From the NCBI GenBank assembly GCA_018970245.1, contig JAGWWT010000001.1, positions 17,548-81,547 of the forward strand: a stretch of 64,000 bases of DNA, in the 5' to 3' direction. The notes beneath the pieces were generated by a model. That model did no database searches. It worked only from the letters and a program-made list of their open reading frames with translations, and was not told where the DNA came from. This DNA comes from Patescibacteria group bacterium. Its GTDB lineage: Bacteria > Patescibacteriota > Minisyncoccia > Phycocordibacterales > PALSA-1337. This document shows, piece by piece, positions 27,357-60,550 of the stretch (within the stretch, counting starts at the first letter, position 1; the number at the start of each line of letters is the position of its first letter). The position numbers and the translations under genes were made by a program.

Positions 27357-27370
27357 TTTGCCAGCAGAGG

Positions 27371-27400
27371 AGATTTAAGATTTAAGAATTAAGATTTAAG
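27371..27400. repeat. Heptamer tandem array (AGATTTAAG/ATTTAAG/AATTAAG)
   Basis: agatttaagatttaagaattaagatttaag, between rpmF and nusB. Confidence 0.8.
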
Positions 27401-27491
27401 GAGCCGGGCAGCAGGCTTAAATCGTAGATCCTAAGTCGTAGATCTTCGCATTAGCACTAGAAAGCCAGCACTAGAAAGCTCTTTCATCGAA

Positions 27492-28394: not shown

Positions 28395-29089
28395 AGCCTG
28401 ACCTCGAAAGCCTAGCCAAAAGCTTGGGCGTCCGGTTCAAGGACATCTCCATCCTACGGACAGCCTGCACCCACCGATCCTACCTGAACGAGAACAAGGG
28501 GGCCGGTTTCGAGCACAACGAGCGGCTGGAATTCCTAGGCGATGCCGTCCTAGAGCTGGTCGTCACCAGCTTCCTCTTCAAGAAGTATCCAAAGAAGGCC
28601 GAAGGCGAGCTGACCTCGCTGAGGTCGGCCATTGTGAACACGGTCAGCCTGACCAGAGTGGCCGAGCATATCGGCCTCAATGATTTCCTGCTCCTATCGA
28701 AGGGTGAGCTCCGGGACACCGGCCGCGCTCGCTCGATCATTCTGGCCAACGCCGTCGAAGCCGTGATAGGCGCCATCTACCTCGACCAGGGATATGAGAC
28801 CGCCGGCGGCTTCATATCAGACAAGATCCTCGGGTCTATAGACATCGACGAGATCGCCGCCAAGAAGCTGTGGCTCGACGCCAAGAGCCGATTCCAAGAG
28901 CAGGCGCAGGACAAAGCTGGCAAGACCCCGAGCTACCGCACTCTCCGTGAAGAGGGCCCAGACCATAACAAGCAGTTCACTCTAGGCGTGTTCCTCGGGG
29001 ACGTCCAGGTAGCCTCGGGCACCGGGGCATCGAAACAGGAGGCAGAGCAAAAGGCCGCAGAGAAGGCGCTGGAAGCCAAGGGGTGGTAG
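28391..29089 (+). CDS. rnc: Ribonuclease III
   Basis: 232 aa with the ERLEFLGDAVLELVV signature and a C-terminal dsRBD. Overlaps the nusB stop. Confidence 0.9.
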   Translation: MKPDLESLAKSLGVRFKDISILRTACTHRSYLNENKGAGFEHNERLEFLGDAVLELVVTSFLFKKYPKKAEGELTSLRSAIVNTVSLTRVAEHIGLNDFLLLSKGELRDTGRARSIILANAVEAVIGAIYLDQGYETAGGFISDKILGSIDIDEIAAKKLWLDAKSRFQEQAQDKAGKTPSYRTLREEGPDHNKQFTLGVFLGDVQVASGTGASKQEAEQKAAEKALEAKGW

Positions 29090-29472: not shown

Positions 29473-29475
29473 ATA

Positions 29476-29527
29476 TCTCCAATCTCTAATATCTAATCTC
29501 TAATATCTAATCTCTAATCTCCAATCC
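29476..29527. repeat. Heptamer tandem array (reverse complement of ATTAGAG/ATTAGAT units)
   Basis: tctccaatctctaatatctaatctctaatatctaatctctaatctccaatcc, immediately upstream of smc. Confidence 0.85.
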
Positions 29528-29549
29528 CCCCTCATGCTAGAATTACTCC

Positions 29550-39032: not shown

Positions 39033-39473
39033 ATGCTCATCGGAGAACACCGCCATACTATCGATGACAAGAATCGCCTGTCGCTTCCCGCCAAGTTCCG
39101 AAAGGAAATGGGACGCGCAGTTGTGATCACGCCGGGACTCGACTCCTGTCTCTTCGTCTTTTCGGCGAAGGAATGGGAGAAGATCTCCGGACGCTTGTCA
39201 GCGGGAGATTCTTCGATACTGCAGGCGGACAACCGCGGCTTCAACCGCTTCCTCCTCGGAGGGGCCGTTGAAGCTCCGGTTGATGCAGTCGGCCGCATGC
39301 TTCTACCGGAACATCTGCGCGAGCACGCCAGGCTCAAGACGAATGTCGTCTTCCTAGGCGTCGTGGACCGCGCCGAGATCTGGGACGAAGAGACTTGGAG
39401 CGCCTATCGGAAGGGTGTGACGGACAACGCCAACGCCCTCGCCGAGAAGCTAGGCCAGGCGGGCGTGAAGTGA
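39033..39473 (+). CDS. mraZ: Division/cell-wall cluster transcriptional regulator MraZ
   Basis: Start MLIGEHRHTIDDKNRLSLPAKFR, with the duplicated MraZ fold motif (second half GAVEAPVDAVGRMLLPEHLRE). Confidence 0.8.
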   Translation: MLIGEHRHTIDDKNRLSLPAKFRKEMGRAVVITPGLDSCLFVFSAKEWEKISGRLSAGDSSILQADNRGFNRFLLGGAVEAPVDAVGRMLLPEHLREHARLKTNVVFLGVVDRAEIWDEETWSAYRKGVTDNANALAEKLGQAGVK

Positions 39474-39532
39474 GGAGTATGGAGAAAGGAGAAAGGAGTA
39501 AGGAGAAAGGAGTAAGGAGCGACGAGAAAGGA
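39474..39532 (+). repeat. Heptamer array (AAGGAGA/AAGGAGT)n spanning the mraZ-rsmH junction and rsmH N-terminus
   Basis: ggagaaaggagaaaggagtaaggagaaaggagtaaggagcgacgagaaaggag, with SD-like units. Confidence 0.8.
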
Positions 39533-40462
39533 GATTCAGTCCACAAACCAGTACTTTTAAATGAAATCATCGGATATTTGACGGATCTGCCTGAACATCC
39601 GTCCGATATCTCGTATCTCGATGGGACTCTAGGCGGAGCAGGGCATGCTCTCGCCGTCGCTGAGGCCTTGAAGGAGAAAGGCGTGCGCCATCTGACGCTG
39701 GCCGGCTTGGACAGAGATCCGGCTGCCATCGCACGCGCCGCCGTCGCCCTGCAGGGGAAGGCTTCCAAGCTGATCCTTGAGAACGAAGATTTTCGGAACC
39801 TGGATAGGGTCCTCGATAAGCACGGCATGAAGGCCGTCGACCTTATCCTCCTAGATCTAGGCATCTCTTCGGATGAGCTAGAGTCTTCCGGCCGCGGCTT
39901 CACCTTCCAGAAGGACGAACCGCTCCTCATGACTCTTGGCGATCCGGCCCGGTACCAATTCACGGCCAAAGACATCGTGAACGGCTGGGAAGAGGAGGTG
40001 CTCGCGAACATCATTTTCGGATATGCAGAAGAAAAGTTCGCCAGGCGCATAGCCAGAGCCATCGTCATCTACCGGTCCAAGAAGAAGATAGAGACGTCGA
40101 TGGAGCTGGCCGAGATCGTCAAGAATGCCGTTCCTCCGTTCTACCGTCGCGGGAAGATCCACCCGGCCACCAAGACCTTCCAGGCCTTGCGCATCGCCGT
40201 CAACGACGAGCTTGAAGCGCTCCGTGAAGGCCTCGCCAAGGGATTCGACAGGCTGGCGCCTGGCGGCCGGATGGCAGTGATCTCCTTCCACAGCCTCGAA
40301 GACAGGATAGTGAAAGGATTCTTCAAAGACAAAGGGAAGCTGGGAGCGGACGTCCTCACCAAGAAGCCGGTCACCGCCGCTCAAGAAGAGATCTCGTCCA
40401 ACCCACGATCCCGCAGCGCGAAATTGCGAGTTATTTCTAAGAACAAAAACCAAAATAAATGA
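39479..40462 (+). CDS. rsmH: 16S rRNA (cytosine1402-N4)-methyltransferase RsmH (MraW)
   Basis: HKPVLLNEIIGYL and DGTLGGAGHA motifs. The only available in-frame start is the ATG at 39479, inside the heptamer array, so the N-terminus MEKGERSKEKGVRSDEKGD is repeat-encoded. Confidence 0.75.
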   Translation: MEKGERSKEKGVRSDEKGDSVHKPVLLNEIIGYLTDLPEHPSDISYLDGTLGGAGHALAVAEALKEKGVRHLTLAGLDRDPAAIARAAVALQGKASKLILENEDFRNLDRVLDKHGMKAVDLILLDLGISSDELESSGRGFTFQKDEPLLMTLGDPARYQFTAKDIVNGWEEEVLANIIFGYAEEKFARRIARAIVIYRSKKKIETSMELAEIVKNAVPPFYRRGKIHPATKTFQALRIAVNDELEALREGLAKGFDRLAPGGRMAVISFHSLEDRIVKGFFKDKGKLGADVLTKKPVTAAQEEISSNPRSRSAKLRVISKNKNQNK

Positions 40463-40803
40463 CAAGAACGATGACAGCAGCATACGATCTCGCCAACGAA
40501 CATCGCAGGCAGATAGTCTGCAGCCTTTTGATCGCGAGCTCATGCCTAGCGGCCATTTATGTGCTGAACATCTATTCGGTCGTCTCTAAGACCGTCGCCC
40601 TCCAGAGGACGGAGAAGCAGATCGCATCGCTCTCGCAGGGCGTCGAGGACCTAGATTCGCAGTATCTGGCCCTTTCGAGCAAGATCACGCCGGATTCCCT
40701 GAAGGAATACGGCTTGTCGCAGGTGCAGGTCTCGGAATACATCTCCCGCTCCTCCACGCTCGGCGTAAGCCAGCTGGCCGTCTCTGGCGGACATGAACTC
40801 TGA
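40459..40803 (+). CDS. ftsL: Cell division protein FtsL-like
   Basis: 114 aa: short cytoplasmic N-terminus, one TM, periplasmic coiled coil. Positioned between rsmH and ftsI with overlapping stop/start. Confidence 0.45.
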   Translation: MTRTMTAAYDLANEHRRQIVCSLLIASSCLAAIYVLNIYSVVSKTVALQRTEKQIASLSQGVEDLDSQYLALSSKITPDSLKEYGLSQVQVSEYISRSSTLGVSQLAVSGGHEL

Positions 40804-42535
40804 TCAACGCCTGCGTTCGCGGCTGATCTTCGGCCTATTCATCATGGGCGCAGCCGTTTTGGCCGTCTCCCTGTATTGGACGCAGATCGTCCAAGGCTCG
40901 CAATATCAGGCCAAGGCCGACCAGCAATACGACAAGCCCAATGCCGCGCAATTCGACCGCGGCACCATATATTTCGAGTCGCGGGACGGCACGAGAGTAG
41001 CGGCGGCGACCGTAGGCAGCGGGTATCTCGTTTTCATCAATCCATCGCAGCTCGCCGACCCGGCCGAAGCGTATTCGGCCCTCTCGCAATTCATATCCGT
41101 CGACCGCGCCTCATTCATGGCCAAAGCCACGAAGCCGAACGATCATTATGAGGTAGTCGCCGACCGGATCGCTACCGACGCCGCCCAATCCATACGCGGG
41201 CTCCAGATCGCCGGCCTGAACGTCGCTCCAGAGACATGGCGCTCATACCCGGGCGGCACGCTGGCAGCTCATGTCCTCGGCCTCACAGGCGAGGATGGCA
41301 GCTCCACGAACGTCATCGGCCGCTACGGCCTCGAGCGGTCTTACGAGGATGTCCTGGGGCGAGCTTCCGCTGGTTCGAGCGCTAACGTCTTCGCCCAGCT
41401 CTTCGGCGGCATCGGCACGGCGCTAGGGGGAGCATCATCGCAGAGCGGCGATATCGTCACGACCATAGACCCTACCGCTCAAAAATACTTGGAGCAGACC
41501 CTCAGCCAGACCGAGTCAGTATGGCATTCTGACGAGATCGGCGGTATAGTGATGGACCCGACCACTGGCGAGATCGTAGCCATGTCGTCGCTGCCGAGCT
41601 TCGACCCGAACGACACCTCATCGATAAAGGACGTATCGGTCTTCTCCGATCCGCTCGTCGAGCACGTATATGAGATGGGATCGATCATGAAGCCGCTCAC
41701 CATGGCTATGGCGCTCGATTCCGGGGCAGAGAAGCCCGACTCCTTATATGACGATACGGGCACGATGGTATTGAACGGCATGAAGATAGCCAACTACGAC
41801 GGCCGCGCGCGCGGGATCATCCCGATGCAGCAGATCCTATCGCAGTCGCTGAACATAGGCGCCGCCACTATAGCCTTGAAGACCGAGAAGGATATCGGCA
41901 CCGGGACCATGTTCAAGTATTTCAGCGATTACGGCCTCGGCGAGAAGTCCGGCATCGATGAGCCGAGCGAGGCCTCCGGCCTCATCTCCAACATCAAGCC
42001 TGGGCCTAACCTGCGCGATATTAACATCGCCACCGCGTCCTTCGGGCAAGGCATCGCCGTCTCGCCCATAGAGATGGTCAGGGCTCTTTCGGTCATAGCT
42101 AATGGCGGTTATCTCGTGACGCCGCATGTCGTGGATGAGATCGACCATACCGACGGTACGGTGCAGAGGATCTTGCCCCAAAAAGAAGGCCCAGTCATCT
42201 CCAAGACCGCCGCTGAAGACGTCACCTTGATGCTCATAAAGGTGGTCGATGACACGATGGCCAAGGTCCATAAGGACATGCATTGGCAGCATTATTCGAT
42301 CGCCGCCAAGACCGGCACGGCCCAGATCCCGGACCATGTCCATGGAGGCTATTATCCGAACCGCTATCTGCACTCCTTCTTCGGTTTTTTCCCGGCATAT
42401 GATCCGCGGTTCATAGTTTTCTTGTACCAGGTCTATCCCAAAGGCGCCGAATACGCCTCGGAGACTCTGACGGATCCCTTTAGCCAGATGGCGAAGTTTC
42501 TGATAAATTACTACAACATAGCTCCGGACAGGTAA
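40793..42535 (+). CDS. ftsI: Penicillin-binding protein (FtsI-type transpeptidase)
   Basis: 580 aa with an N-terminal TM and SIMK (SxxK), SQSLN (SxN) and KTGTA (KTG) motifs. Confidence 0.8.
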   Translation: MNSDQRLRSRLIFGLFIMGAAVLAVSLYWTQIVQGSQYQAKADQQYDKPNAAQFDRGTIYFESRDGTRVAAATVGSGYLVFINPSQLADPAEAYSALSQFISVDRASFMAKATKPNDHYEVVADRIATDAAQSIRGLQIAGLNVAPETWRSYPGGTLAAHVLGLTGEDGSSTNVIGRYGLERSYEDVLGRASAGSSANVFAQLFGGIGTALGGASSQSGDIVTTIDPTAQKYLEQTLSQTESVWHSDEIGGIVMDPTTGEIVAMSSLPSFDPNDTSSIKDVSVFSDPLVEHVYEMGSIMKPLTMAMALDSGAEKPDSLYDDTGTMVLNGMKIANYDGRARGIIPMQQILSQSLNIGAATIALKTEKDIGTGTMFKYFSDYGLGEKSGIDEPSEASGLISNIKPGPNLRDINIATASFGQGIAVSPIEMVRALSVIANGGYLVTPHVVDEIDHTDGTVQRILPQKEGPVISKTAAEDVTLMLIKVVDDTMAKVHKDMHWQHYSIAAKTGTAQIPDHVHGGYYPNRYLHSFFGFFPAYDPRFIVFLYQVYPKGAEYASETLTDPFSQMAKFLINYYNIAPDR

Positions 42536-42545
42536 TAAAATTGCA

Positions 42546-42573
42546 GAATTAGGAATTAAGAATTAAGATTTAT
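42546..42573. repeat. Heptamer tandem array (AATTAGG/AATTAAG)
   Basis: gaattaggaattaagaattaagatttat, ending 2 nt before the 4HB start codon. Confidence 0.8.
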
Positions 42574-42575
42574 GG

Positions 42576-42977
42576 ATGGGTCTACTAGACGCTCCAAGAA
42601 GCAAGATCAGATCATTCACAGACCTCAAATCCTGGAAGGAAGGCCATGGATTAGTAGTCTTGACCTATAGGATAACGGCAAAATTCCCGCGTTCTGAGCT
42701 TTATTCTCTCACTGATCAGATGCGTAGAGCTGCTTCTTCAGTAACCGCAAATATAGCGGAAGGGTTCGGGAGGCGAAGCTATAAAGAAAAGATCCAATTC
42801 TACTATCATTCACAGGGTTCTTTGACTGAATTGAAGGATCATATTTTGACAGCTAAGGATATCGGATATTTGAATGAGGATGATTTAAGATCCTTGGCAG
42901 AATCGGCCAATATGACTCACAGATTGCTTCAAGGACTCATAACGAAATCCAAGTCCTTCTTAAATCTTAAATCCTGA
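42576..42977 (+). CDS. Four-helix-bundle protein (23S rRNA-IVS protein family, TIGR02436; DGR Avd-like fold)
   Basis: 133 aa with the hallmark SVTANIAEGFGRRSYKEKIQFYYHSQGSLTELKDHILTAKDIGYL. Paralogous to 58549..58935. Inserted between ftsI and murF. Confidence 0.75.
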   Translation: MGLLDAPRSKIRSFTDLKSWKEGHGLVVLTYRITAKFPRSELYSLTDQMRRAASSVTANIAEGFGRRSYKEKIQFYYHSQGSLTELKDHILTAKDIGYLNEDDLRSLAESANMTHRLLQGLITKSKSFLNLKS

Positions 42978-42990
42978 TTCTTAATTCCTG
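42957..42990. repeat. Heptamer tandem array overlapping the 3' end of the 4HB gene
   Basis: ttcttaaatcttaaatcctgattcttaattcctg encodes the C-terminal FLNLKS* and continues past the stop. Confidence 0.8.
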
Positions 42991-42998
42991 CTCAGCCC

Positions 42999-44303
42999 AT
43001 GCAACCCATCAAGAAAGCCATAATAAGCATCCTCACACTGGAGTCCAGGCTCATACTGCGCAAATACAGGCCATTCATCGTGGCCGTGACCGGCAGCGTA
43101 GGCAAGACTTCGACCAAGGACGCGATCTTCAGCGTCTTCAAGGGCCAAGGCGGCTATGTGCGGAAGAGCGAGAAGAACATGAACAGCGACATCGGCTTGC
43201 CGCTCACGATCATAGGCGTGCCGAATGCTTGGCGCAGCCCTTCGGCTTGGCTGAAGAACATAAGGGCCGGCCTGAGGCTCATCCTGTCCAAGAATGAATA
43301 CCCGGATTGCCTGATCTTGGAGGTGGGTGCGGATCACCCGGGAGACATCAGCAGGACGGTGAGATGGCTCAAGCCGGACATCGCCGTGATCACCAAAGTC
43401 TCGCAGACGCCGGTCCACGTAGAGTTCTTCAAGTCGCCTGAGGACGTCTTCAAGGAGAAAGCATCGCTCGCCGAAGGCGTCAAAGCCGGAGGGACAGTGA
43501 TCCTCTTTGCCGACGACGCGAAGGTCATGTCGATCGCCGATATGGTCAAAGCCAAGCAGTCGAGGATAGCGACCTTCGGGACAGCCGAAGGGTCGACGGT
43601 CAAGGGTTCTGGCTTCGAGACGGCATACGACGAGCAAGGCAGGCCGAAGGGGATCGCCTTCGGCATGCAGATGGGGTCGACGAGCCTGCGCGCATCGGTG
43701 GACGGCATACTGGGGCGCACATTCATGTACCCTCTCCTCACAGCGGCCGCAGCGGCTCAAGCGAGGGGTATCGATGCGGAAAAGATCGCCGAAGGCATCA
43801 ATTCCTATGAGGCGCCCAGGGGCAGGATGAACATCATAGAGGGCGCGAATGGCTCGATGATTATAGACGACACCTACAATTCCTCGCCCGATGCAGCCGA
43901 AGCGGCCCTAGAGACGATCAAATCGCTACGATGCGCCGGCTCGAAGATCGCGGTTCTCGGAGACATGATGGAGCTTGGCAAATTCTCGGCAGAGGAGCAC
44001 AGGAAGATCGGCGCGGTCGCAGCCTCATCGGTCGATCGGCTAGTGACAGTGGGGCCTAGGTCGCGTGCGACGGCGGAAGAAGCGGGGAAGAAAGGCCTCT
44101 CTCAGGCGATGATCGCGTCGTTCGATTCCGCAGACGAGGCCGCAAGCTTTCTCAAGCCGCTCGTAGGCCCTGGCGATACGATCCTGGTCAAAGGATCGCA
44201 ATCAGTGCGCATGGAGCGGGTCGTGAAAGCCCTGATGCGCTCGCCTGAAGACGCTGAGAAGCTGCTTGTCCGGCAGGAGCCGGAATGGCTGAGCAGGGCC
44301 TGA
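42999..44303 (+). CDS. murF: UDP-N-acetylmuramoyl-tripeptide--D-alanyl-D-alanine ligase (MurF)
   Basis: 434 aa. LRKYRPFIVAVTGSVGKTSTKD is a Mur-ligase P-loop with the MurF-type N-terminus. Confidence 0.7.
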   Translation: MQPIKKAIISILTLESRLILRKYRPFIVAVTGSVGKTSTKDAIFSVFKGQGGYVRKSEKNMNSDIGLPLTIIGVPNAWRSPSAWLKNIRAGLRLILSKNEYPDCLILEVGADHPGDISRTVRWLKPDIAVITKVSQTPVHVEFFKSPEDVFKEKASLAEGVKAGGTVILFADDAKVMSIADMVKAKQSRIATFGTAEGSTVKGSGFETAYDEQGRPKGIAFGMQMGSTSLRASVDGILGRTFMYPLLTAAAAAQARGIDAEKIAEGINSYEAPRGRMNIIEGANGSMIIDDTYNSSPDAAEAALETIKSLRCAGSKIAVLGDMMELGKFSAEEHRKIGAVAASSVDRLVTVGPRSRATAEEAGKKGLSQAMIASFDSADEAASFLKPLVGPGDTILVKGSQSVRMERVVKALMRSPEDAEKLLVRQEPEWLSRA

Positions 44304-48128: not shown

Positions 48129-49127
48129 ATGAACAGAAATGAGGCAAAAAACCGCTGTAATGGCCCGCAAACAAAGACGTCTTACGGATTTATGAGAGCC
48201 CGCACCGCATCAGTCCTAGGGAGCGTGATCCTGGGGGCGGCTTTATTCGCTTTTCTGCCGGCTGGCAGAGCCGATGCCCAGATCTTCCCGTTCCCATTCG
48301 GAGGAGGTTCGCACTCCAGCCCTCTCGGCTTCTTGCCAAATCCAGGCCGCCTGCCGAATCCTCTCAGCATATTGCCGAATCCATTCGGATCGCCGATAGG
48401 CCACGATTACGGCTACGGCAACAACCACGGCTATAACAACAATTACAACTACAATTATAACTACAACTATAATTCCAACCGCGGACCTTATCCGCCTCCG
48501 GCATATCACCCGCCAGAGCCGCGCCCAAATCCGCAACCATATCCGTATCCGATCCCACACCCCCAGCCGAATCCTCGCCCATATCCATATCCGTCGCCGT
48601 ATCCTTCGCCGGTGCCATATCCGGTGCCATATCCTGTCCCGCAGCCGGTCTACTACCCACAACCTCAACCTGTGGTCCAGCCGATCTATTATCCTCAGCC
48701 TCAGCCTGTGGTCCAGCCCATAGTCTATCAACAGCCGGTCTATGTGCCCCCGCCGCAGCCAGTCTACGTACAACAGCCGCAGCCGATCGTCATAAGCCAG
48801 CCGCAACCCGTCTACGTCCAGCAGCAGCCGGTCATCGTGAGCCAGCCGTATCAGTCATACCCCCAGTCGCTCTCCATATCCTGCTATCCGGATTCGACGA
48901 CCGTTTACAACAACCGATTCGTGACATGGACAGCCGATGTCACCGGCGGCGTCACGCCCTACGCTTATTCTTGGAGCGGGACAGAGTACACCGGCAATAT
49001 GAGCTCGAGCCAGATATACCAGTACTACCAGTATCTCGGATACAAGACTATGAATGTGACCGTCCGCTCTGCCGACGGCCAGACGGCATTCGCCAGCTGC
49101 GGCTCGGTGAACGTGATAGATCCATAG
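48129..49127 (+). CDS. Secreted low-complexity protein (NY and PQPV repeats) with a conserved C-terminal module
   Basis: Signal peptide; (NY)n; P/Q/V/Y-rich repeats. The C-terminal TVRSADGQTAFASCGSVNV is shared with the 51472 gene. Confidence 0.55.
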   Translation: MNRNEAKNRCNGPQTKTSYGFMRARTASVLGSVILGAALFAFLPAGRADAQIFPFPFGGGSHSSPLGFLPNPGRLPNPLSILPNPFGSPIGHDYGYGNNHGYNNNYNYNYNYNYNSNRGPYPPPAYHPPEPRPNPQPYPYPIPHPQPNPRPYPYPSPYPSPVPYPVPYPVPQPVYYPQPQPVVQPIYYPQPQPVVQPIVYQQPVYVPPPQPVYVQQPQPIVISQPQPVYVQQQPVIVSQPYQSYPQSLSISCYPDSTTVYNNRFVTWTADVTGGVTPYAYSWSGTEYTGNMSSSQIYQYYQYLGYKTMNVTVRSADGQTAFASCGSVNVIDP

Positions 49128-49148: not shown

Positions 49149-51374
49149 ATGGCTGTACCCGATAGCTTTTTGAAGCCCTACGATCCTGGGGCTACCGAAG
49201 ACCGCATATACTCGCTCTGGGAGAAGAGCGGCTTTTTCGATCCTGACGATCTGCCTGAAAGGAACAAGAATGGCGAGCCTTTTTCCATAGTCCTGCCCCC
49301 GCCTAACGTGACAGGCACCCTCCATATGGGCCATGCCGCCATGCTCGCTATCGAGGACATAATGATCAGATACAAGCGGATGCGCGGATACAGGACATTG
49401 TGGCTTCCTGGCACGGATCACGCAGCCATCGCCACGCAATCCAAGGTCGAGAAAGAGATAGTCAAGAAGGAGGGCAAGAATCGCCACGACCTAGGACGAG
49501 AGGAGTTCCTGAAGCGCGTTGGCGAGTTCGCCAAGAATAGCCACGACACGATAGTCAATCAGGTCCGCAAGATGGGCGCTTCAGTCGACTGGTCGCGGGA
49601 AGCATTCACTTTGGATGAGAAGCGCTCCTTCGCTGTCCGGACCGCCTTCAAGCGCATGTACGATATGGGCCTCATTTACCGCGGCAACCGCATCGTCAAT
49701 TGGGATCCGAAGGGGCAGACCACTATCTCCGACGATGAGATCGTCTATAAGGAAGAGAAGACGAAGTTCTATTATTTCAAATACGGCCCGTTCGTCATCG
49801 GCACAGCCAGGCCTGAGACGAAGTTCGGCGACAAGTACGTCGTCATGCATCCGGACGATGCGCGCTACGCCGCTTACAAGCATGGCCAGAAGATCGACCT
49901 TGAATGGATAAACGGCCCTATCACGGCGACGGTCATCAAGGATGCTTCTATCGACATGGAGTTCGGGACCGGCGTCATGACGATCACGCCTTGGCACAGC
50001 GCTGTGGATTTCGACATAGCCGAACGGCATAAGCTCGACAAAGAGCAGATCATCGATACATTCGGCAAGCTCCTGCCCGTAGCGGGCGAGTTCGCCGGCA
50101 TGAAGATCGCCGAAGCCAGGCCCAAGATCGTGGAGAAGCTCCGCGCTAAAGGCCTCGTAGAAAAGGAAGAAGACTACGTCCACAACATCGCTACCGCTGA
50201 GCGCACTGGCGGCCTAGTGGAGCCTCAGATCATGAAGCAATGGTTCGTCGGGGTGAATACGAGGTTCGAGATCCCGGGCGCCAAAAAAGGCTCGAGCAGC
50301 AAGACTCTCAAAGAGATTATGAAGGAAGCTGTCGAGTCCGGAAAGATAAAGATCATTCCTGACAGATTCGAGAAGATCTATTATCACTGGATAGACAATC
50401 TCCGCGATTGGTGCATCTCGCGCCAGATCTGGTATGGGCACAGAGTGCCGGTGTGGTACAGGAGGGCAGAGATTGGAGATGAGAGATTAGATATTAGAGA
50501 TGAGAGATCAGAGACTAGAGAGGAGGTGTATGTGGGCGTGGAGGCGCCGGAAGGGGAAGGTTGGAGACAAGATGAAGACACTCTCGATACCTGGTTCTCG
50601 TCGGGCCTCTGGACATTCTCGACCCTAGGCTGGCCGGAAGAGACCGAAGACCTCAAGCTCTACCACCCGACCGACGTCCTCGAGACGGGCTATGACATCC
50701 TCTTTTTCTGGGTGGCCAGGATGATCCTCATGACCGGATGCCTTCTCGGTGATGTACCGTTCAAGACAGTCTATCTCCATGGCCTCGTCCGCGATGGGAA
50801 GGGCCGCAAGATGTCCAAATCGCTGGACAACATCATCGATCCTCTGGACATGATCAAGAAGTACGGCGGCGACGCCACGCGCCTGTCGCTCATCATCGGC
50901 ACCGGACCAGGGAACGATCTCAAGCTCTCCGAGGACAAAGTCCGCGGCTACAAGAATTTCGCTAATAAGCTCTGGAACATCACTCGTTTCGTCCTGGAAT
51001 CAGCCGGCGGCGAGGCCATCGACAAAGCCTTCGAAGGCTACACGGACGCAGACGCCAAGCTCCGCAAGGCCAGGCGTGCGTTCCTGGAAGAGATCACCCG
51101 CGAAATGGAGGAGTTCAAATTCTACCTGGTAGGCGAAAAGCTATATCACTATGCCTGGCATGAATTCGCGGACAAGATCCTAGAGGATAGCAAGAAGATA
51201 TTCAGGGAGGGGGATGAAAAGGCCCAGAGGTCACGCCGCCAGCTTTTGCTCCATACGCTGGACGATATCTTGCGGGCTCTGCATCCATTCATGCCATTCG
51301 TGACTGAAGAGATCTGGAGGGCTATGGATCGGGATCAGGGCATGCTCATGGTCCAGGAATGGCCGATCGCCTAA
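49149..51374 (+). CDS. valS: Valyl-tRNA synthetase (short form) with a repeat-encoded insertion
   Basis: 741 aa with PPPNVTGTLHMGHA (HIGH), KMSKS and an editing domain. Lacks the long C-terminal coiled coil. Confidence 0.9.
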   Translation: MAVPDSFLKPYDPGATEDRIYSLWEKSGFFDPDDLPERNKNGEPFSIVLPPPNVTGTLHMGHAAMLAIEDIMIRYKRMRGYRTLWLPGTDHAAIATQSKVEKEIVKKEGKNRHDLGREEFLKRVGEFAKNSHDTIVNQVRKMGASVDWSREAFTLDEKRSFAVRTAFKRMYDMGLIYRGNRIVNWDPKGQTTISDDEIVYKEEKTKFYYFKYGPFVIGTARPETKFGDKYVVMHPDDARYAAYKHGQKIDLEWINGPITATVIKDASIDMEFGTGVMTITPWHSAVDFDIAERHKLDKEQIIDTFGKLLPVAGEFAGMKIAEARPKIVEKLRAKGLVEKEEDYVHNIATAERTGGLVEPQIMKQWFVGVNTRFEIPGAKKGSSSKTLKEIMKEAVESGKIKIIPDRFEKIYYHWIDNLRDWCISRQIWYGHRVPVWYRRAEIGDERLDIRDERSETREEVYVGVEAPEGEGWRQDEDTLDTWFSSGLWTFSTLGWPEETEDLKLYHPTDVLETGYDILFFWVARMILMTGCLLGDVPFKTVYLHGLVRDGKGRKMSKSLDNIIDPLDMIKKYGGDATRLSLIIGTGPGNDLKLSEDKVRGYKNFANKLWNITRFVLESAGGEAIDKAFEGYTDADAKLRKARRAFLEEITREMEEFKFYLVGEKLYHYAWHEFADKILEDSKKIFREGDEKAQRSRRQLLLHTLDDILRALHPFMPFVTEEIWRAMDRDQGMLMVQEWPIA
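50476..50517 (+). repeat. Six degenerate heptamers (42 nt) in-frame inside valS
   Basis: gatgaga gattaga tattaga gatgaga gatcaga gactaga encodes DERLDIRDERSETR, located between the WYGHR(V)P(V)WY motif and RQDEDTLDTWFSS. Confidence 0.75.
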
Positions 51375-55261: not shown

Positions 55262-55825
55262 ATGGATTCATACAAGAACAAGATCATATATTTCTACAGG
55301 CGCACGAAGCGCATGCCCAGCTATGCGGAGATAATGTCTCTGCTCGGCTTCAAGTCCAAGAATGCCGTCTACAAATTGGTGAACAAGCTCGTGAGCGAGG
55401 GTGCTTTGGATAAAGATTCGCAGGGACGGCTAGTACCGAACCGCCTTTTCGGAGAGGTGCCTGTCCTCGGATTGGTCGAGGCGGGATTTCCCACCGCTGC
55501 CGAGGAGGAGCTCGTAGATACTATGAGCCTCGACGAATATATGATCGAGAACAAAGAGGCCACCTATATGCTCGAGGTAAAGGGCGATTCTATGATCGAG
55601 GCCGGCATCCAGGAAGGCGACCTTGTCATCGCTGAAAGAGGCAAGGAGCCCAAGCCTGGCGATATCGTCATTGCCGAGGTCGACGGCGGATGGACGATGA
55701 AATATTTCCGTAAGACCGGCAACCAAGTGTGGCTGGAGCCTGCGAACAAGGCGTACAAGCCTATCTATCCCGAAGCCGATCTCAAGATCGCCGCCGTCGT
55801 GAAGGGGGTGATCAGGAAATATTAA
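55262..55825 (+). CDS. lexA: SOS repressor LexA
   Basis: 187 aa from MDSYKNKIIYFYRR: wHTH (YAEIMSLLGFKSKNAVYKLV), S24 peptidase with VKGDSMIEAGI (catalytic Ser) and the Lys dyad partner. Confidence 0.85.
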   Translation: MDSYKNKIIYFYRRTKRMPSYAEIMSLLGFKSKNAVYKLVNKLVSEGALDKDSQGRLVPNRLFGEVPVLGLVEAGFPTAAEEELVDTMSLDEYMIENKEATYMLEVKGDSMIEAGIQEGDLVIAERGKEPKPGDIVIAEVDGGWTMKYFRKTGNQVWLEPANKAYKPIYPEADLKIAAVVKGVIRKY

Positions 55826-55835
55826 ATATCAAAGA

Positions 55836-55857
55836 TTAAAAATTAAAAACAACAACC
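55836..55857. repeat. Short heptamer-like array (GATTAAA/AATTAAA)
   Basis: aagattaaaaattaaaaacaac, immediately upstream of the VOC gene start. Confidence 0.5.
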
Positions 55858-56226: not shown

Positions 56227-57527
56227 TCCTAACCCACAGATCGTTCCCGCGTGCGATACTCCACGTAGATGGCGACAGCTTTTTCGCCTCGTGCGAGGTC
56301 GCCAAGGATCCGAGCCTGAAGGGCAAATGCGTGGTCACTGGCAAGGAGCGTGGCATAGCGAGCTCCATGAGCTACGAAGCCAAAGCCCGTGGCGTTACGC
56401 GGGCGATGCGGCTGTCCGAGATCAAAAAGCTCATCCCAGACGTGATAATTTTGCCGTCGGACTATGAGACGTACAGCCTGTATTCGCAGCGCATGTATGA
56501 GATCGTACGGCGCTATACGGACGCTGTCGAGGAGTATTCGATCGACGAATGCTTCGCGGATCTCACGGGGATGCGCCGGCCCAACAACATGTCGTACGAG
56601 GCTATGGCCGAGAAGATAAAACGCGAATTGGACGGCGAGCTCGGCATGACGTTCTCGGTTGGTTTGGCTTTGAATAAAGTCACGGCCAAGGTGGCCAGCA
56701 AATGGCGGAAGCCGTCCGGATTGACGATCATTCCTGGCTACCATCTTCATCTTTATTTGGCAAAGACCCCGATAGAGAAGATCTGGGGCATCGGTCCGCA
56801 GACTTCTTCATATTTGATAAAGAAAGGCGTGAAGACCGCCTTGGATTTCGCCATGAAGGAAAAAGAATGGGTCAAAGCGCTTTTTTCCAAGCCGTTCCAG
56901 GAGATCCATTCGGAACTGAATGGCGATTTTGTGTATCCTTTGACCGTCGGTGAGAAGCACGACTACGCTTCCATATCTAAAACGCGGACATTCACGCCAC
57001 CCTCGAAGGACAGGGGATTCGTCTATTCGCAGCTATCCAAGAATATCGAGAATGCCTGCATAAAGCTGCGCCGGCACAACCTCTTCGCCAAGGCCTTCGC
57101 TTTCTATCTGAAGACACAGGACTTCAGGTACAGCGGATTGGACTTCAAACTGAGCCAAGCTGTCTCCGTGCCCCAGGAGATATTGAAGATAGTCAGCGAG
57201 CGATTCGACGATGTGTACAGACCAGGCTTCGAATACAGGGCTACCGGCGTGGTCCTCATGGAATTGAGCCATTCTGATGCCCGTACGCTCGACCTATTCG
57301 GCCGATCTGGCGCGATAGACAGGATAAAGCGCGTCTATGAGGGCGTAGATGCCGCCTGCGCCAAGTTCGGCAAGCATGCCGTATTCCTGGGGTCTTCATT
57401 CAGGGCCATGAATGAGCCTGCGCATAGGGGCGATAGGGCTGATTCGTCAGAAAGGCGCAAGAATCTCGTCAAAGGAGAGAACGAAAGGCAGAGAATAGGG
57501 TTGCCATTCCTGGGAGTTGTCAAATAG
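56223..57527 (+). CDS. dinB: DNA polymerase IV (Y-family, DinB)
   Basis: Start MILTHRSFPRAILHVDGDSFFAS (overlaps the VOC stop in ATGA). Y-family palm/fingers motifs and a little-finger domain. Confidence 0.85.
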   Translation: MILTHRSFPRAILHVDGDSFFASCEVAKDPSLKGKCVVTGKERGIASSMSYEAKARGVTRAMRLSEIKKLIPDVIILPSDYETYSLYSQRMYEIVRRYTDAVEEYSIDECFADLTGMRRPNNMSYEAMAEKIKRELDGELGMTFSVGLALNKVTAKVASKWRKPSGLTIIPGYHLHLYLAKTPIEKIWGIGPQTSSYLIKKGVKTALDFAMKEKEWVKALFSKPFQEIHSELNGDFVYPLTVGEKHDYASISKTRTFTPPSKDRGFVYSQLSKNIENACIKLRRHNLFAKAFAFYLKTQDFRYSGLDFKLSQAVSVPQEILKIVSERFDDVYRPGFEYRATGVVLMELSHSDARTLDLFGRSGAIDRIKRVYEGVDAACAKFGKHAVFLGSSFRAMNEPAHRGDRADSSERRKNLVKGENERQRIGLPFLGVVK

Positions 57528-57554
57528 AATCAGTTCGTGTATGATGTTTCGACT

Positions 57555-57875
57555 ATGGAATTCGCCGTAATACAAACAGGTGGGAAGCAGTATACCGTCG
57601 CCAAAGGCGATGTTATAACCATTGAGAAGCTCCCTGGCGAGCATAAGGAGGGCGATAAGGTCGTCTTCGACAAGGTCCTCCTCATGGATAACGGCAAGGA
57701 CACCACTATCGGCACTCCCTATATAAATAAAGCCTCGGTCCAGGGCACGATCACCAAGATCGGCCGCGCTGCCAAGGTCCTCGTCGTCAAATATATGCAG
57801 AAGAGCCGCTCAGGATGGAAGCGCAATGGCCACAGGCAGCCCTTCTTCCAGGTCAAGATAGATGCGTTGAAGTAA
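57555..57875 (+). CDS. rplU: 50S ribosomal protein L21
   Basis: MEFAVIQTGGKQYTVAKGDVITIEKL matches the L21 N-terminus. An alternative start at 57537 would add six residues. Confidence 0.8.
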   Translation: MEFAVIQTGGKQYTVAKGDVITIEKLPGEHKEGDKVVFDKVLLMDNGKDTTIGTPYINKASVQGTITKIGRAAKVLVVKYMQKSRSGWKRNGHRQPFFQVKIDALK

Positions 57876-57882
57876 GGGAGGG

Positions 57883-57922
57883 TAGATATTAGAGATTAGA
57901 GACTAGAGATTAGAGACTAGAG
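57883..57922. repeat. Heptamer tandem array (ATTAGAG/ACTAGAG) overlapping the recR 3' end
   Basis: gatattagagattagagactagagattagagactagag. The recR stop and last codons lie inside it. Confidence 0.85.
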
Positions 57923-58518
57923 CGCCGGTTTTGGAGGGCGCTCTTTATCGTTTCAGAGTCGGCATATTCGAGCTCTGCGCCTGTGGATAGGCCCCGTCCT
58001 AGGACAGTGATCCGAGCCGGCGAGACTTTTGCCAAACCTTCGTGCACGATCTTTTCGGTGTGCTCGCCATCAGGGGTCGTATTCAGGGACAGGATGATCT
58101 CCGTCAGCGTCGATTCGGATGCGCGTTCCAAGAGCTGCTGCAGCCTTATGCGCTTCTCGGGCTCCTTGTCTAGTATGGGCACAGTGCCGCCGAGGATGAA
58201 ATATAGGCCTTTGTATGCGCCTGATCTTTCGACAGTCTCGAAGTCCGAGTCTCTGGCGACGACCATCAGCGTGGATCGGTCTCGGCTCTGATCGGCACAT
58301 GTCGGACAGAGGTCTGTTTTTTGAGCCCTATGGAAGAAGAACCTATGGCACTTCTCGCATTCGCTGGTCGATCGGCGGACGTCGGCGACTAGGTCGGTGA
58401 ATTCCTTGATCGAAGCAGGAGACTTGTTGAGCAGATAATAGACGAACCGCTTGGCCTGGCGAGGGCCGATGCCTGGGAAGCGGGAGAATATCTCTTCTAG
58501 GCGGTGTAGGGAATCCAT
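57910..58518 (-). CDS. recR: Recombination protein RecR
   Basis: 202 aa with HhH, a C4 zinc finger (CEKCHRF...CPTC), and Toprim and Walker-B-like motifs. Confidence 0.9.
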   Translation of the reverse strand: MDSLHRLEEIFSRFPGIGPRQAKRFVYYLLNKSPASIKEFTDLVADVRRSTSECEKCHRFFFHRAQKTDLCPTCADQSRDRSTLMVVARDSDFETVERSGAYKGLYFILGGTVPILDKEPEKRIRLQQLLERASESTLTEIILSLNTTPDGEHTEKIVHEGLAKVSPARITVLGRGLSTGAELEYADSETIKSALQNRRSSL

Positions 58519-58544
58519 GGGAGTAGAGCGGAGAGTAGAGAGCA

Positions 58545-58575
58545 GAGATTAGAGATTAGAGATTAGATTAGAGAG
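58545..58575. repeat. Heptamer tandem array (AGATTAG) overlapping the 4HB gene 3' end
   Basis: agagattagagattagagattagattagagag. Its reverse complement encodes the C-terminal ...LSNLISNL*. Confidence 0.85.
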
Positions 58576-58935
58576 GGAATTGGTTTTTGTGATCAGGCCC
58601 TGCAGCAGGCGATGGGCGCTGCTGATCCGATCACTGGCCTCATTGTAGTCTTTTTCTGAGATGTATGAAATATCCCTCGAAAGGATGAGCTGGTTCTCGA
58701 GCTCTGACATCGAGCCGCGAGCTTGGTAATAGAAATGCGCTTTGTCCTTGTATGTCCTGCGTCCGAAGCCCTCGGCGATATTGGACGTGATCGATACGGC
58801 TGACCTTCTCATCTGGCCTGCAAGGCCAAAGAGCTCTTCCTTCGGGAATTTCCTCGTCAAATCATACACGCCCATTACAAGGCGGTGTGAGACCTGCCAA
58901 GCCTGCAAATCTGTGAATTTGACGATGCCACCCAT
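58549..58935 (-). CDS. Four-helix-bundle protein (23S rRNA-IVS protein family, TIGR02436; Avd-like fold), paralog 2
   Basis: 128 aa: FTDLQAWQVSHRLVMGVYDLTRKFPKEE...RRSAVSITSNIAEGFGRRTYKDKAHFYYQARGSMSELENQLILSRDISYI. Confidence 0.8.
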   Translation of the reverse strand: MGGIVKFTDLQAWQVSHRLVMGVYDLTRKFPKEELFGLAGQMRRSAVSITSNIAEGFGRRTYKDKAHFYYQARGSMSELENQLILSRDISYISEKDYNEASDRISSAHRLLQGLITKTNSLSNLISNL

Positions 58936-58939
58936 ATAT

Positions 58940-58970
58940 GCCCTCTAATATCTAATCTCTAATCTCTGCC
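58940..58970. repeat. Heptamer tandem array upstream of the 4HB gene
   Basis: ccctctaatatctaatctctaatctctgccc. Confidence 0.8.
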
Positions 58971-58974
58971 CCCC

Positions 58975-60348
58975 CTAAAATCCGCCAAAATCCGCCTTTT
59001 CCATCGAGAGGAACGTCGTCTTCTTTGAGTCGAAGAATAGCTTGGCCACGCCGGTCGGGCCGTTGCGGTGCTTCTCGATCATGATCTCAGCCTCTTCCTT
59101 GCGGCCGCCATTGTCCTGGTCGGCTTCGCGGTGTATGAACATGACCACATCGGCATCTTGCTCGATAGAGCCGGAATCGCGCAAGTCAGAGAGGCGGGGC
59201 TTGCCGCCGCGCTGCTCGACGGCGCGGGAAAGCTGGGAGAGGGCTAGGACCGGCACTTCCAATTCGCGGGCAAGGGTCTTGAGCGACCTGGATATCTCGG
59301 TTACCTGCTGCACTAGGTTGTCATTGCCGCGCGTCTGTGTAGGGATCATGAGCTGGAGATAGTCGACGATGATGAGTCCGAGGCCCTTCTCGTTCTTGAG
59401 GCGGCGGGCGACAGCGCGCATCTTGATTATGTTGTTCCCGGGCTGGTCATCTATGAAGATGGGCGCTTCAGAGAGCTTGGATATGGCGTCGCCGATCGCC
59501 CGGAAGTCCTCCTGCACGGAAAGATTGTGGCCGGTGCGGATCTTCCAGGCGTCGACCTGGGATTCGGCTGAGAGCATGCGATCGACGAGCTGCTGGGAGC
59601 TCATCTCTAGCGAGAATATGGCGACCGGGACCTTGAAATTGACAGCGGCCTTGCGGGCTATGTCCAGGGCGAGCGAGGTCTTTCCCATGGACGGCCTGGC
59701 GGCGAGGATGATCAGGTCGGATTTCTGGAAGCCGGCCAGCTTGTTGTCCAATTCCGGGAAGCCGGTGTGGACGCCTCGGATCTCGCCGCTGGTCTTGTGG
59801 AGATGGTCCAAGCGCTCCCAGGCCTCGTTTAGCGTGTCCTTGAGGGCCACGAATTTGTGCGAGCCGGTCTTGTTCGTCACGGCATAGAGCGAGCGCTCGG
59901 CTTTTTCGAGGATCTCGTGGAGCTCCGCGTCCTCCTCATAGCCCAGGGCGGTGATATTCTCGGCAGCGCGCAGAAGCTCGCGCATCACATGCTTCTTTTC
60001 GACTATCTCGGCGTAATTGGAAGCGTTGGTCGATGAGGGGACGAGGTTTATGAACTCTGTCAGCGCCGACATGCCGCCGACCTGCTCCAGCTCGCCCTTT
60101 TCCTTGAGCCTGGCTGAGACGGTCAGGACGTCGATCGGGGAGTTCTTGGTATGGAGCTCGAAGAGCGCCTCCCAGATCATCCTGTGCGCGGTGGAGTAGA
60201 ACGACTGCGACGAGACGATGTCGACGATGTCGTGCATCACCTCGCCGCGGATCATGACCGACCCGAGAAGGGCCTTCTCAGCTTCGATCGAATTCGGAGG
60301 GATCTTCAGGTCCTTGGTCTTGAAATAGGGAGAAGGGTTGTTGTTCAC
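58975..60348 (-). CDS. dnaB: Replicative DNA helicase DnaB
   Basis: 457 aa with the N-terminal DnaB domain and a RecA-like C-terminal domain (GKTSLALDIA Walker A). No intein is present. Confidence 0.9.
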   Translation of the reverse strand: MNNNPSPYFKTKDLKIPPNSIEAEKALLGSVMIRGEVMHDIVDIVSSQSFYSTAHRMIWEALFELHTKNSPIDVLTVSARLKEKGELEQVGGMSALTEFINLVPSSTNASNYAEIVEKKHVMRELLRAAENITALGYEEDAELHEILEKAERSLYAVTNKTGSHKFVALKDTLNEAWERLDHLHKTSGEIRGVHTGFPELDNKLAGFQKSDLIILAARPSMGKTSLALDIARKAAVNFKVPVAIFSLEMSSQQLVDRMLSAESQVDAWKIRTGHNLSVQEDFRAIGDAISKLSEAPIFIDDQPGNNIIKMRAVARRLKNEKGLGLIIVDYLQLMIPTQTRGNDNLVQQVTEISRSLKTLARELEVPVLALSQLSRAVEQRGGKPRLSDLRDSGSIEQDADVVMFIHREADQDNGGRKEEAEIMIEKHRNGPTGVAKLFFDSKKTTFLSMEKADFGGF

Positions 60349-60550
60349 GTTGCTGCCATTGTATCACGCTCGCTGCGGGACAGTTACAAGCCCGATCGGG
60401 TGGAAAAGTTGTGCATAGCGCCGGGTCGGATAGTCTTGACATCGGTGGTATAATGGACCAAGTCCGCCAATAGCTCGTAGATACCCCAGTGATCGTAGAT
60501 GCCAGTTTCCGTTCGTCTATTATAAAAATGTTCCATCAGCTTCATTAAAT

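Follow-up and report, generated by a model that had tools for sequence, protein, structure and literature searches.

Tandem heptamer arrays around PF05635 genes in operons of a Patescibacteria group bacterium: candidate paired arms of intervening-sequence-like cassettes

The window analysed here, a stretch of 64,000 nt (55.6% G+C) from a Patescibacteria group bacterium (GenBank assembly GCA_018970245.1, contig JAGWWT010000001.1, forward-strand positions 17,548 to 81,547), contains two genes for small four-helix-bundle (4HB) proteins, each placed between tandem arrays of 7-nt units (heptamers). The first locus, denoted cassette 1, lies between dnaB and recR. Read on the transcribed strand, the order is the stop codon of an uninterrupted dnaB, an (AGAGATT)n array, the 4HB open reading frame (ORF), an (AATCTCT)n array, recR, a further (AATCTCT)n array and the end of the convergent rplU. 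The first of these arrays, the 5′ arm, fills the spacer of ∼40 nt between the dnaB stop and the 4HB start, and the second, the 3′ arm, encodes the C-terminus of 4HB protein 1 (KTNSLSNLISNL, with the tail SLSNLISNL) together with its stop codon. The third array covers the recR stop and the last three codons of recR (57883-57922). A first-pass annotation of the window had already placed arrays at the three rplU/recR/4HB/dnaB junctions and upstream of smc, had described the overlap with the recR end, the array-encoded 4HB tail and the array in front of the 4HB start, and had seen both orientations; all of this agrees with the sequence and with Tandem Repeats Finder, and the two arrays flanking the 4HB gene are inverted relative to each other.

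The second locus, cassette 2, has the same layout with another unit (AAGAATT/AAGATTT) and lies between ftsI and a Mur ligase gene. Both proteins belong to family PF05635 (23S_rRNA_IVP, 23S rRNA intervening-sequence protein), with scores of 127.3 bits for protein 1 and 117.1 bits for protein 2 (cut-off 33.8), and to TIGR02436, with 117.9 and 109.2 bits (cut-off 24). The sequence of protein 1 is the same as that of an NCBI entry, ‘four helix bundle protein’ of a Patescibacteria group bacterium, and its nearest solved structure is 2GSC (XCC0516), which was deposited with five chains. The family is strongly conserved, with 33 invariant columns across 20 4HB homologues, and profile searches (Pfam, TIGR02436/NF and PADLOC) recognised no nuclease, transposase or polymerase domain in the 4HB protein.

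Period-7 arrays were called by direct reading of the sequence and with Tandem Repeats Finder, which together gave ten heptamer arrays in the window and none in shuffled sequence. Tandem Repeats Finder returned period-7 arrays of 5.7 copies (TAGAGAT) at 57883-57922, 5.3 copies at 58531-58567, 3.6 copies at 58943-58967 and 7.4 copies at 29475-29526. When the 21-nt probe (AGAGATT)x3 was run with up to 3 mismatches, 17 matches were found in the window, compared with 0 in 100 dinucleotide-preserving shuffles of it, and these matches fall at five sites (29474-29529, 50468-50516, 57884-57918, 58537-58564 and 58947-58967). Six arrays had escaped the first-pass annotation (27370-27401, 39473-39534, 42545-42574, 42957-42987, 55817-55847 and, inside a gene, 50468-50521). 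Head-to-tail 7-nt units in several copies thus recur at many intergenic sites, as is characteristic of dispersed tandem heptamer repeats. Because the same arrays recur in four other independent assemblies, they are not assembly artefacts.

Table 1. Cassettes, arrays and neighbouring genes of the window (positions count from its first letter)
Feature	Position	Strand	Remarks
ORF-less hairpin of two inverted heptamer arrays	27369-27449	+	between rpmF (L32, 27132-27356) and nusB-NUDIX gene (27492-28394)
RNase III gene (rnc)	28391-29089	+	Ribonuclease_3 and dsrm domains
orphan (ATCTCTA)n array, ∼7.5 units	29475-29529	+	after terminator-like hairpin; ends 20 nt before smc start (29550)
(GGAGAAA/GGAGTAA)n array, ∼nine units	39473-39534	+	between mraZ stop and conserved rsmH start
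5′ arm, cassette 2	42545-42575	+	units AGAATTA GGAATTA AGAATTA AGATTTA; directly before start codon
4HB gene 2, 133 aa	42576-42977	+	PF05635; between ftsI (40793-42535) and Mur ligase gene (42999-44303)
3′ arm, cassette 2	42950-42995	+	TTCTTAAATCTTAAATCCTGATTCTTAATTCC; encodes tail SFLNLKS and stop codon
AGAGATT-family array, 54 nt	50468-50521	+	in-frame within valyl-tRNA synthetase gene (49149-51374)
weak A/T-rich period-7 array	55817-55847	+	between S24 peptidase gene and glyoxalase gene
rplU	57537-57875	+	Pfam
third array	57876-57925	-	between convergent rplU and recR; covers recR stop; sense as 3′ arm
recR	57910-58518	-	Pfam
3′ arm, cassette 1	58519-58580	-	(AATCTCT)n on transcribed strand; runs to recR start codon (58518)
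4HB gene 1, 128 aa	58549-58935	-	PF05635 / TIGR02436
5′ arm, cassette 1	58936-58974	-	GGGGGGGCAGAGATTAGAGATTAGATATTAGAGGGCATAT on transcribed strand; between dnaB stop and 4HB start (58935)
dnaB	58975-60348	-	Pfam; stop codon 58975-58977; uninterrupted

The arms of cassette 1 are complementary over 26 nt at 96%, or over 30-32 nt at 81-87%. When the cassette (∼490 nt) was folded as RNA, the arms were paired with each other in both the minimum free energy (MFE) and the centroid structure, so as to enclose the whole ORF (z = -4.3), and the arms of cassette 2 were likewise paired in both folds (z = -2.6). An RNA-level role, one of several offered in the first-pass annotation, thus gains support from these predicted structures, in which the arrays flanking the 4HB gene would be the two sides of an ORF-enclosing stem. 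The third array is complementary to the 5′ arm of cassette 1 over 34 nt at 85%, including the G-run and C-run flanks, and could serve as an alternative outer partner of that arm; a homologue of it adjoins the rplU stop in the related locus L003.

To see how general this arrangement is, we turn to other genomes. A scan with a 4HB alignment, restricted to one genome per species, gave 80 loci, mostly of many lineages of the candidate phyla radiation (CPR), and 74 of them were usable for measurements. A heptamer array, in many cases with the ATG in its last unit, stands before almost every 4HB gene, and the reverse-complement array, which makes up the protein tail and stop codon, stands after it; the unit itself varies by locus (GATTTAT, GAATTAT, GTATTAA, GAATCAC, GTGAACA, GTAGTAA and others). 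Seven was the best period in the upstream flank of 58 of the 74 loci and in the downstream flank of 70, compared with 5 for a control segment inside the ORF. Because tandem repeats cannot be aligned unambiguously between loci, which precludes an analysis of covariation pair by pair, each upstream arm was compared with its own downstream arm and with that of another locus. The mean alignment score was 30.6 against the reverse complement of its own downstream arm, 18.7 against the arm of another locus and 14.1 in direct orientation, and the own arm outscored the foreign one in 64 of the 74 loci. Arm complementarity is thus locus-specific.

Arrays are also concentrated at these genes. With a lag-7 detector, 132 arrays were found in 919 kb of related sequence, compared with 0 once the sequence had been shuffled locally. 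Of the 132, 78 (59%) are no more than 80 nt away from one end of a 4HB gene, in a zone that we estimate at ∼3% of the sequence. Three quarters of the 4HB genes (49/65) are codirectional with both neighbours, and the start codon is found a median of 32 nt past the upstream stop; hence the cassette sits in operon spacers that leave it scant space for separate signals. Purines dominate the upstream arm and pyrimidines the downstream arm in 46 loci, with the reverse in 5, which may be due to the ribosome-binding site and ATG that the upstream arm has to contain. A weak core, GA[A/T]T, with a single G in each unit, is common to the upstream arms (4.3 bits, whereas shuffled units reach 3.2 at most). 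Other CPR genomes also contain very long orphan arrays, such as (CATAACG) x16 at L031 4054-4170 and (CTTATAC) x7 at L042 4934-5002; each is over 600 nt away from the closest 4HB gene end in the sequence fetched.

Outside the CPR, flanking repeats accompany 13 of 14 plasmid-borne homologues and are mostly inverted heptamers, with the units (AGGAGTC)n and (TAGGGAG)n in Nostoc, (GGGTGTA)n in Calothrix, (AAGGGAA)n in Geminocystis and (AAGGTTT)n in Riemerella. In Xanthomonas, a 4HB gene lies between accB and accC, preceded by GGGAATC GGGAGTG GAGAATC GGGAATC and followed by the same series inverted. A true intervening sequence (IVS) in helix 45 of 23S rRNA with inverted heptamer arms was found in Azospirillum lipoferum (L158; Rfam LSU, 402 bits). 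Three of the cyanobacterial cassettes, all on plasmids, stand in CRISPR-cas operons (L154 of Pseudanabaena, L160 of Picosynechococcus and L161 of Anabaena sp. 90), at sites that comprise cas6/cas4, cas10/cmr3 and a position beside cas4; such a setting may be the reason that the family appears in lists of cas-associated ones.

The dnaB/recR junction itself can be compared with and without the 4HB gene. We collected 65 metagenomic loci whose DnaB is 58-89% identical to that of the window and in which the order dnaB-recR-rplU is kept. The dnaB/recR spacer in these loci is usually 2-40 nt long and array-free; a 4HB gene with arms occupies it in L088 and L112, just as it does in the window, in L002 and in L003, whereas L121, L125 and L126 have an ORF-less inverted heptamer hairpin there and still other loci have unrelated genes. 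The first-pass annotation had taken the arrays as marks of gene junctions, and they are indeed present at all three junctions of this segment; however, they belong to the 4HB gene and not to junctions generally, because orthologous dnaB/recR junctions that lack the gene are mostly free of them. Among the syntenic cassettes, those of L003, L112 and L088 differ from the window in arm sequence and keep the arm-to-arm folding; L003 has a variant unit, AGTAATT, which is shared by its two arms and recurs as GGTAATT in its third array. Although DnaB is 82% identical, identity to the 4HB protein of the window drops to 55-60% in L088 and L112, and either fast divergence or independent insertion would produce this pattern. 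In four further loci (L117, L120, L133 and L135), ∼1.25 kb interrupts the DnaB match between residues ∼400 and ∼390-457, a sign that the helicase may contain an intein or some other insertion.

The first-pass annotation had also proposed slippage at the arrays and a comparison of copy number across strains, and the length differences that we find point to hypermutable arrays. Over 15.5 kb, the window and GCA_028865675.1 (loci L002 and L170) are 98.4% identical, with 247 mismatches and only five indel blocks, of which four fall in heptamer arrays (+7 nt at each of 57883 and 58548, 54 nt at 50475 and +77 nt at 58939). Among five assemblies of this population, the rplU/recR array measures 46 or 53 nt and the recR/4HB array 56 or 63 nt, in steps of one unit, and all four combinations of these alleles occur. 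Thus, recurrent slippage, or recombination within 600 bp, must have taken place. The 4HB/dnaB array has ∼40 nt in the window and in L171, compared with 117 nt (∼11 units) in GCA_028865675.1. Heptamer arrays are therefore the main source of indels between these near-identical CPR strains. The independent short-read contig L001 has one of its ends within an array, its positions 1-40 corresponding to 58541-58580 of the window, which fits the idea that the arrays break short-read assemblies of these genomes.

We propose, with a probability of roughly 0.6, that the arrays flanking the 4HB genes are the paired arms of IVS-type cassettes that reside in operon spacers, and that the resulting stem is likely cut by RNase III. 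A cassette would consist of a PF05635 ORF between inverted tandem-heptamer arrays, lodged in a spacer of a few nucleotides in a host operon (dnaB-recR or ftsI-mur) and transcribed by read-through from that operon. The purine-rich upstream arm, which holds the ribosome-binding region and start codon, would pair with the pyrimidine-rich downstream arm, which holds the tail and stop codon, giving a double-stranded stem of 26-35 bp with the ORF in its loop. This stem would most likely be a substrate of RNase III, as in 23S rRNA intervening sequences; a stem of at least two helical turns and an rnc gene are both present in the window. Since the arms are tandem repeats, they can gain or lose whole units by slippage and would still pair in shifted registers. 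The layout, its spread across the family, the complementarity of arms locus by locus and the differences in length are observed; pairing in RNA rather than in DNA, cleavage by RNase III and any advantage for host or element are inferred.

Several points weigh against this explanation. Pairing and cleavage of the RNA are deduced for this organism and likewise for every cassette outside rRNA. A start codon placed in the stem would be masked; the 4HB protein is strongly conserved all the same, so translation must escape the stem somehow. Moreover, the need for a stem does not by itself account for the use of tandem heptamers in place of any other inverted repeat, nor for the weak core shared by upstream arms and the orphan arrays that have no partner. 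Finally, two of the 14 flanks outside the CPR are direct and not inverted (L154 and L157), one of them with period 8: the Pseudanabaena plasmid L154 carries 13 + 10 direct copies of AAAAGCT/AAAAGCC, and Gemmatirosa a direct repeat of period 8.

The remaining arrays of the window are probably derivatives or relatives of such arms, comprising an ORF-less hairpin, orphan arrays and one array in frame in the valyl-tRNA synthetase (ValRS) gene. In the ORF-less hairpin, the array at 27370 has as its partner an inverted array 17 nt further downstream (MFE -34.3 kcal/mol, z -2.2), and the unit is the AAGATTT/AAGAATT of cassette 2; the orphan arrays at 29475, 50468 and 57883 carry the AGAGATT unit of cassette 1. 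Folding gave no local partner for the arrays at 29475, 39473, 55817 and 57883, all of which appear unstructured by themselves, so that only 27369-27449 forms a hairpin. The weak array at 55817 is also present in L002, with the same length. Each unit of the array in front of rsmH contains a Shine-Dalgarno-like GGAG, and this array possibly encodes an N-terminal extension of RsmH starting at ATG 39479.

The ValRS array is translated as AEIGDERLDIRDERSETREE, 18 extra residues in an essential enzyme, and direct reading of it showed GAG in the two units whose TAG would be in frame. Because it is absent both in the 98.4%-identical L002, which has a single AGAGATT there, and in the Peribacteria outgroup L048, this array is a gain in the lineage of the window. 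Arrays can thus colonise essential genes. The earlier view that a coding function is the less likely one therefore holds only in part, since both 4HB proteins take their tail and stop codon from arrays and the ValRS array is translated too.

Some further observations concern neighbouring sequence. The 300-aa ORF at 27492-28394, downstream of the hairpin, joins a NusB domain (residues 7-136) to a NUDIX domain (residues 179-283), a fusion of which we know no earlier description. Tandem repeats of other periods were also seen: 36-, 45- and 48-nt repeats rich in CAGCCG/CAACC at 48431-48848, within a 332-aa ORF (48129-49127), which probably encode a Q/P-rich repetitive segment, and a 15-nt unit, GCAGCGATCCGTTCG, in 4.8 copies with 94% identity at 15416-15487.

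Four other explanations of the arrays were considered. The one that survives best, though we regard it as unlikely, and which is compatible with paired IVS-type arms, is that the arrays are recognition sites of the 4HB protein and that the stem is secondary, in the manner of repetitive extragenic palindromes (REPs) and their REP-associated tyrosine transposases (RAYTs). The match of units between orphans and resident cassettes in the window speaks for it, with AGAGATT shared by three orphans and cassette 1, and the hairpin unit shared with cassette 2. So does the Xanthomonas 4HB gene, whose arms are made of GGGAATC, the dispersed repeat of that genome, which is recorded at 186 sites and forms inverted pairs in 70 cases (Rehm et al. 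2015, PMC4692102). The density of orphan arrays is 9.0-9.4 per 100 kb in the window and near 4HB genes, compared with 1.1 in loci of related bacteria selected by DnaB, although this eight-fold enrichment is drawn from fragments of 6-8 kb and not from whole genomes. Orphan units lie within one mismatch of the resident cassette unit in 12 of 40 cases, compared with 11% for other loci, but this sharing is modest (mean distance 2.17 vs 2.48) and not strong evidence. The weak core and the purine/pyrimidine polarity of upstream arms would also suit a recognised site; the polarity, however, is explained more simply by a purine-rich ribosome-binding site followed by ATG.

With regard to the protein, the five chains of 2GSC are suggestive, as Avd of diversity-generating retroelements, a relative of the PF05635 family, is a nucleic-acid-binding pentamer. 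On the other side, to our knowledge, nucleic-acid binding has been shown for no stand-alone PF05635 protein, the 4HB protein has no recognisable domain of the nuclease, transposase or polymerase type, and units differ widely between loci while the protein motif barely does, which is hard to fit with sequence-specific recognition. If the 4HB protein does bind the arrays, and possibly maintains or spreads them, PF05635 proteins and tandem heptamer arrays would form one widespread system that accounts for the short tandemly repeated repetitive (STRR) sequences of cyanobacteria, the Xanthomonas GGGAATC repeats, the arms of rRNA IVSs and the CPR arrays together; we put this forward as a doubtful but possible generalisation.

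An improbable alternative holds that the arrays are functionless simple-sequence repeats, arisen by slippage in AT-rich spacers, and that their association with 4HB genes is incidental. Length changes by whole units between near-identical strains are what such a process would leave behind, orphan arrays are unstructured and stand in assorted spacers, and the excess of heptamers in bacteria has been attributed to polymerase slippage (PMC4692102). Slippage of this kind cannot, however, yield complementary arrays around one gene family in 64 of 74 loci and at least five phyla. Nor does it agree with the crowding of 59% of arrays into the estimated ∼3% of sequence near 4HB ends, with the lack of arrays at most orthologous dnaB/recR junctions that have no 4HB gene, or with syntenic arms that differ in sequence and keep their complementarity. 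As a full explanation of the flanking arrays, it is already contradicted.

Still less probable is the reading of the arrays as terminal inverted repeats of a DNA transposon or miniature inverted-repeat transposable element (MITE), in which the 4HB gene would be the cargo or the mobility factor and the ORF-less hairpins miniature forms. It would explain the patchy filling of the dnaB/recR junction, which may be empty, hold a 4HB gene with arms (L088, L112) or hold arrays without an ORF (L121, L125, L126), as well as insertions that split operons in a wide range of hosts (cas6/cas4, cas10/cmr3, ribonucleotide reductase subunits and accB/accC). Mobility of IVSs was proposed by Ralph and McClelland in 1993, as cited in PMC4990558. 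However, filled and empty junctions (TAGacATG, TAGccATG) display no target-site duplication, a comparison that is weak since it was made by eye and across species, and the 4HB protein has no transposase-like domain. The two cassettes of the window are only 49% identical and have different arms, which gives no sign of recent copying; the order dnaB-4HB-recR persists where DnaB is only 82% identical, and arm lengths vary independently between strains. Finally, a role of the arrays as promoters, intrinsic terminators or other boundary signals for transcription, which their position at junctions and the array between a terminator-like hairpin and smc might suggest and which the first-pass annotation had considered for terminators, is very improbable indeed, for consensus scans of 57300-60500 gave no sigma-70-like or terminator-like pattern at any array, and the arrays have no G+C-rich hairpin, occur in both orientations and in one case lie inside coding sequence.

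Among known systems, the resemblance to Avd of diversity-generating retroelements is one of fold, that of a distantly related four-helix bundle with sub-threshold scores. Identity with Avd was rejected on the profiles NF033474 (29.8 and 19.4 bits, cut-off 80) and PF22296 (27.6 bits, cut-off 40). Membership in such a retroelement was rejected as well: the neighbours are dnaB and recR, or ftsI and the Mur ligase gene, and neither a reverse transcriptase nor a template or variable repeat was found beside the 4HB genes. PADLOC models matched the 4HB proteins with no family at E-values up to 0.01, and membership in a defence system was rejected accordingly.

The likeness to REP/RAYT pairs lies in a small gene between inverted copies of a repeat that is also dispersed as intergenic singletons and hairpin doublets. 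RAYTs are HUH (Y1) tyrosine transposases, and REPs are single imperfect palindromes, not tandem heptamers; the 4HB protein differs in having no HUH domain, with PF05635 and a sub-threshold bAvd match as its only hits. A closer likeness is to the STRR sequences of cyanobacteria and the GGGAATC and GGGGA(C/T)T repeats, which consist of ∼4-10 tandem 7-nt units, lie mostly in spacers between codirectional genes, occur singly or as convergent inverted pairs and vary in length between close relatives, as do the arrays of the window. The GGGGA(C/T)T arrays of Nostoc and the GGGAATC arrays are transcribed, length-variable and of unknown function (PMC4692102). The Xanthomonas PF05635 gene is flanked by exactly the GGGAATC repeat, and those of Nostoc and Calothrix by inverted heptamer arrays. 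The window units (AGAGATT, AAGAATT) differ from the Xanthomonas and Nostoc repeats in being AT-rich and without G-tracts, so that they cannot form the G-quadruplexes that have been proposed for those repeats. The text of PMC4692102 makes no mention of a PF05635 link (‘S23’, ‘helix bundle’ and ‘intervening sequence’ are absent from it). More generally, we found no literature linking PF05635 genes with flanking heptamer arrays beyond the 5′ heptamers of Coxiella, a provisional result given incomplete coverage of subscription journals, and a family-wide link of PF05635 to bacterial heptamer repeats appears to be undescribed so far.

The closest parallel is the IVS of 23S rRNA. In Coxiella burnetii, the helix-45 IVS contains an S23p (PF05635) ORF behind 2-3 tandem GACAGAT heptamers, depending on the strain; it has a stem of 28 bp and is excised by RNase III, with ends in mid-stem and the 5′ end at the first repeat, and its ORF is decaying and not expressed (PMC4990558). 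ORFs of the 23S_rRNA_IVP family have also been described inside rRNA insertions of CPR bacteria (10.1101/2024.02.27.582315). The window cassettes share the ORF family with the IVSs of Coxiella, Leptospira and Azospirillum (L158), and they likewise place the ORF in the loop of an inverted-repeat stem, predicted at 26-35 bp here compared with 28 bp in Coxiella. As in the Coxiella IVS, tandem heptamers stand directly before the start codon in a copy number that varies between strains, and, as proposed here for the cassettes, an IVS is transcribed only within its host transcript. The differences are that the published heptamers are confined to the 5′ side and to Coxiella, that the 4HB protein is strongly conserved in our case and cleavage a prediction, and that the hosts are mRNA operons (dnaB-recR, ftsI-mur) and not helix 25 or 45 of 23S rRNA, for which reason we call the cassettes IVS-like.

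Three old oddities of ‘function unknown’, each described on its own so far, come together in this comparison, namely ORF-bearing IVSs of 23S rRNA, the excess of tandem heptamers in bacteria (STRR, GGGAATC) and 4HB genes, which lie scattered by the dozen in the genomes of cyanobacteria, Bacteroidota and CPR bacteria. The window and ∼100 related loci reveal an architecture common to them, in which inverted heptamer arrays bracket a PF05635 ORF and which is found beyond rRNA in the spacers of essential operons too. This raises questions that can be tested, such as whether RNase III cuts the arms in mRNA, whether the protein binds the arrays, and whether array density tracks the gene across genomes. 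The new aspect is the PF05635 cassette layout of rRNA IVSs, here placed between ordinary genes in mRNA operons.

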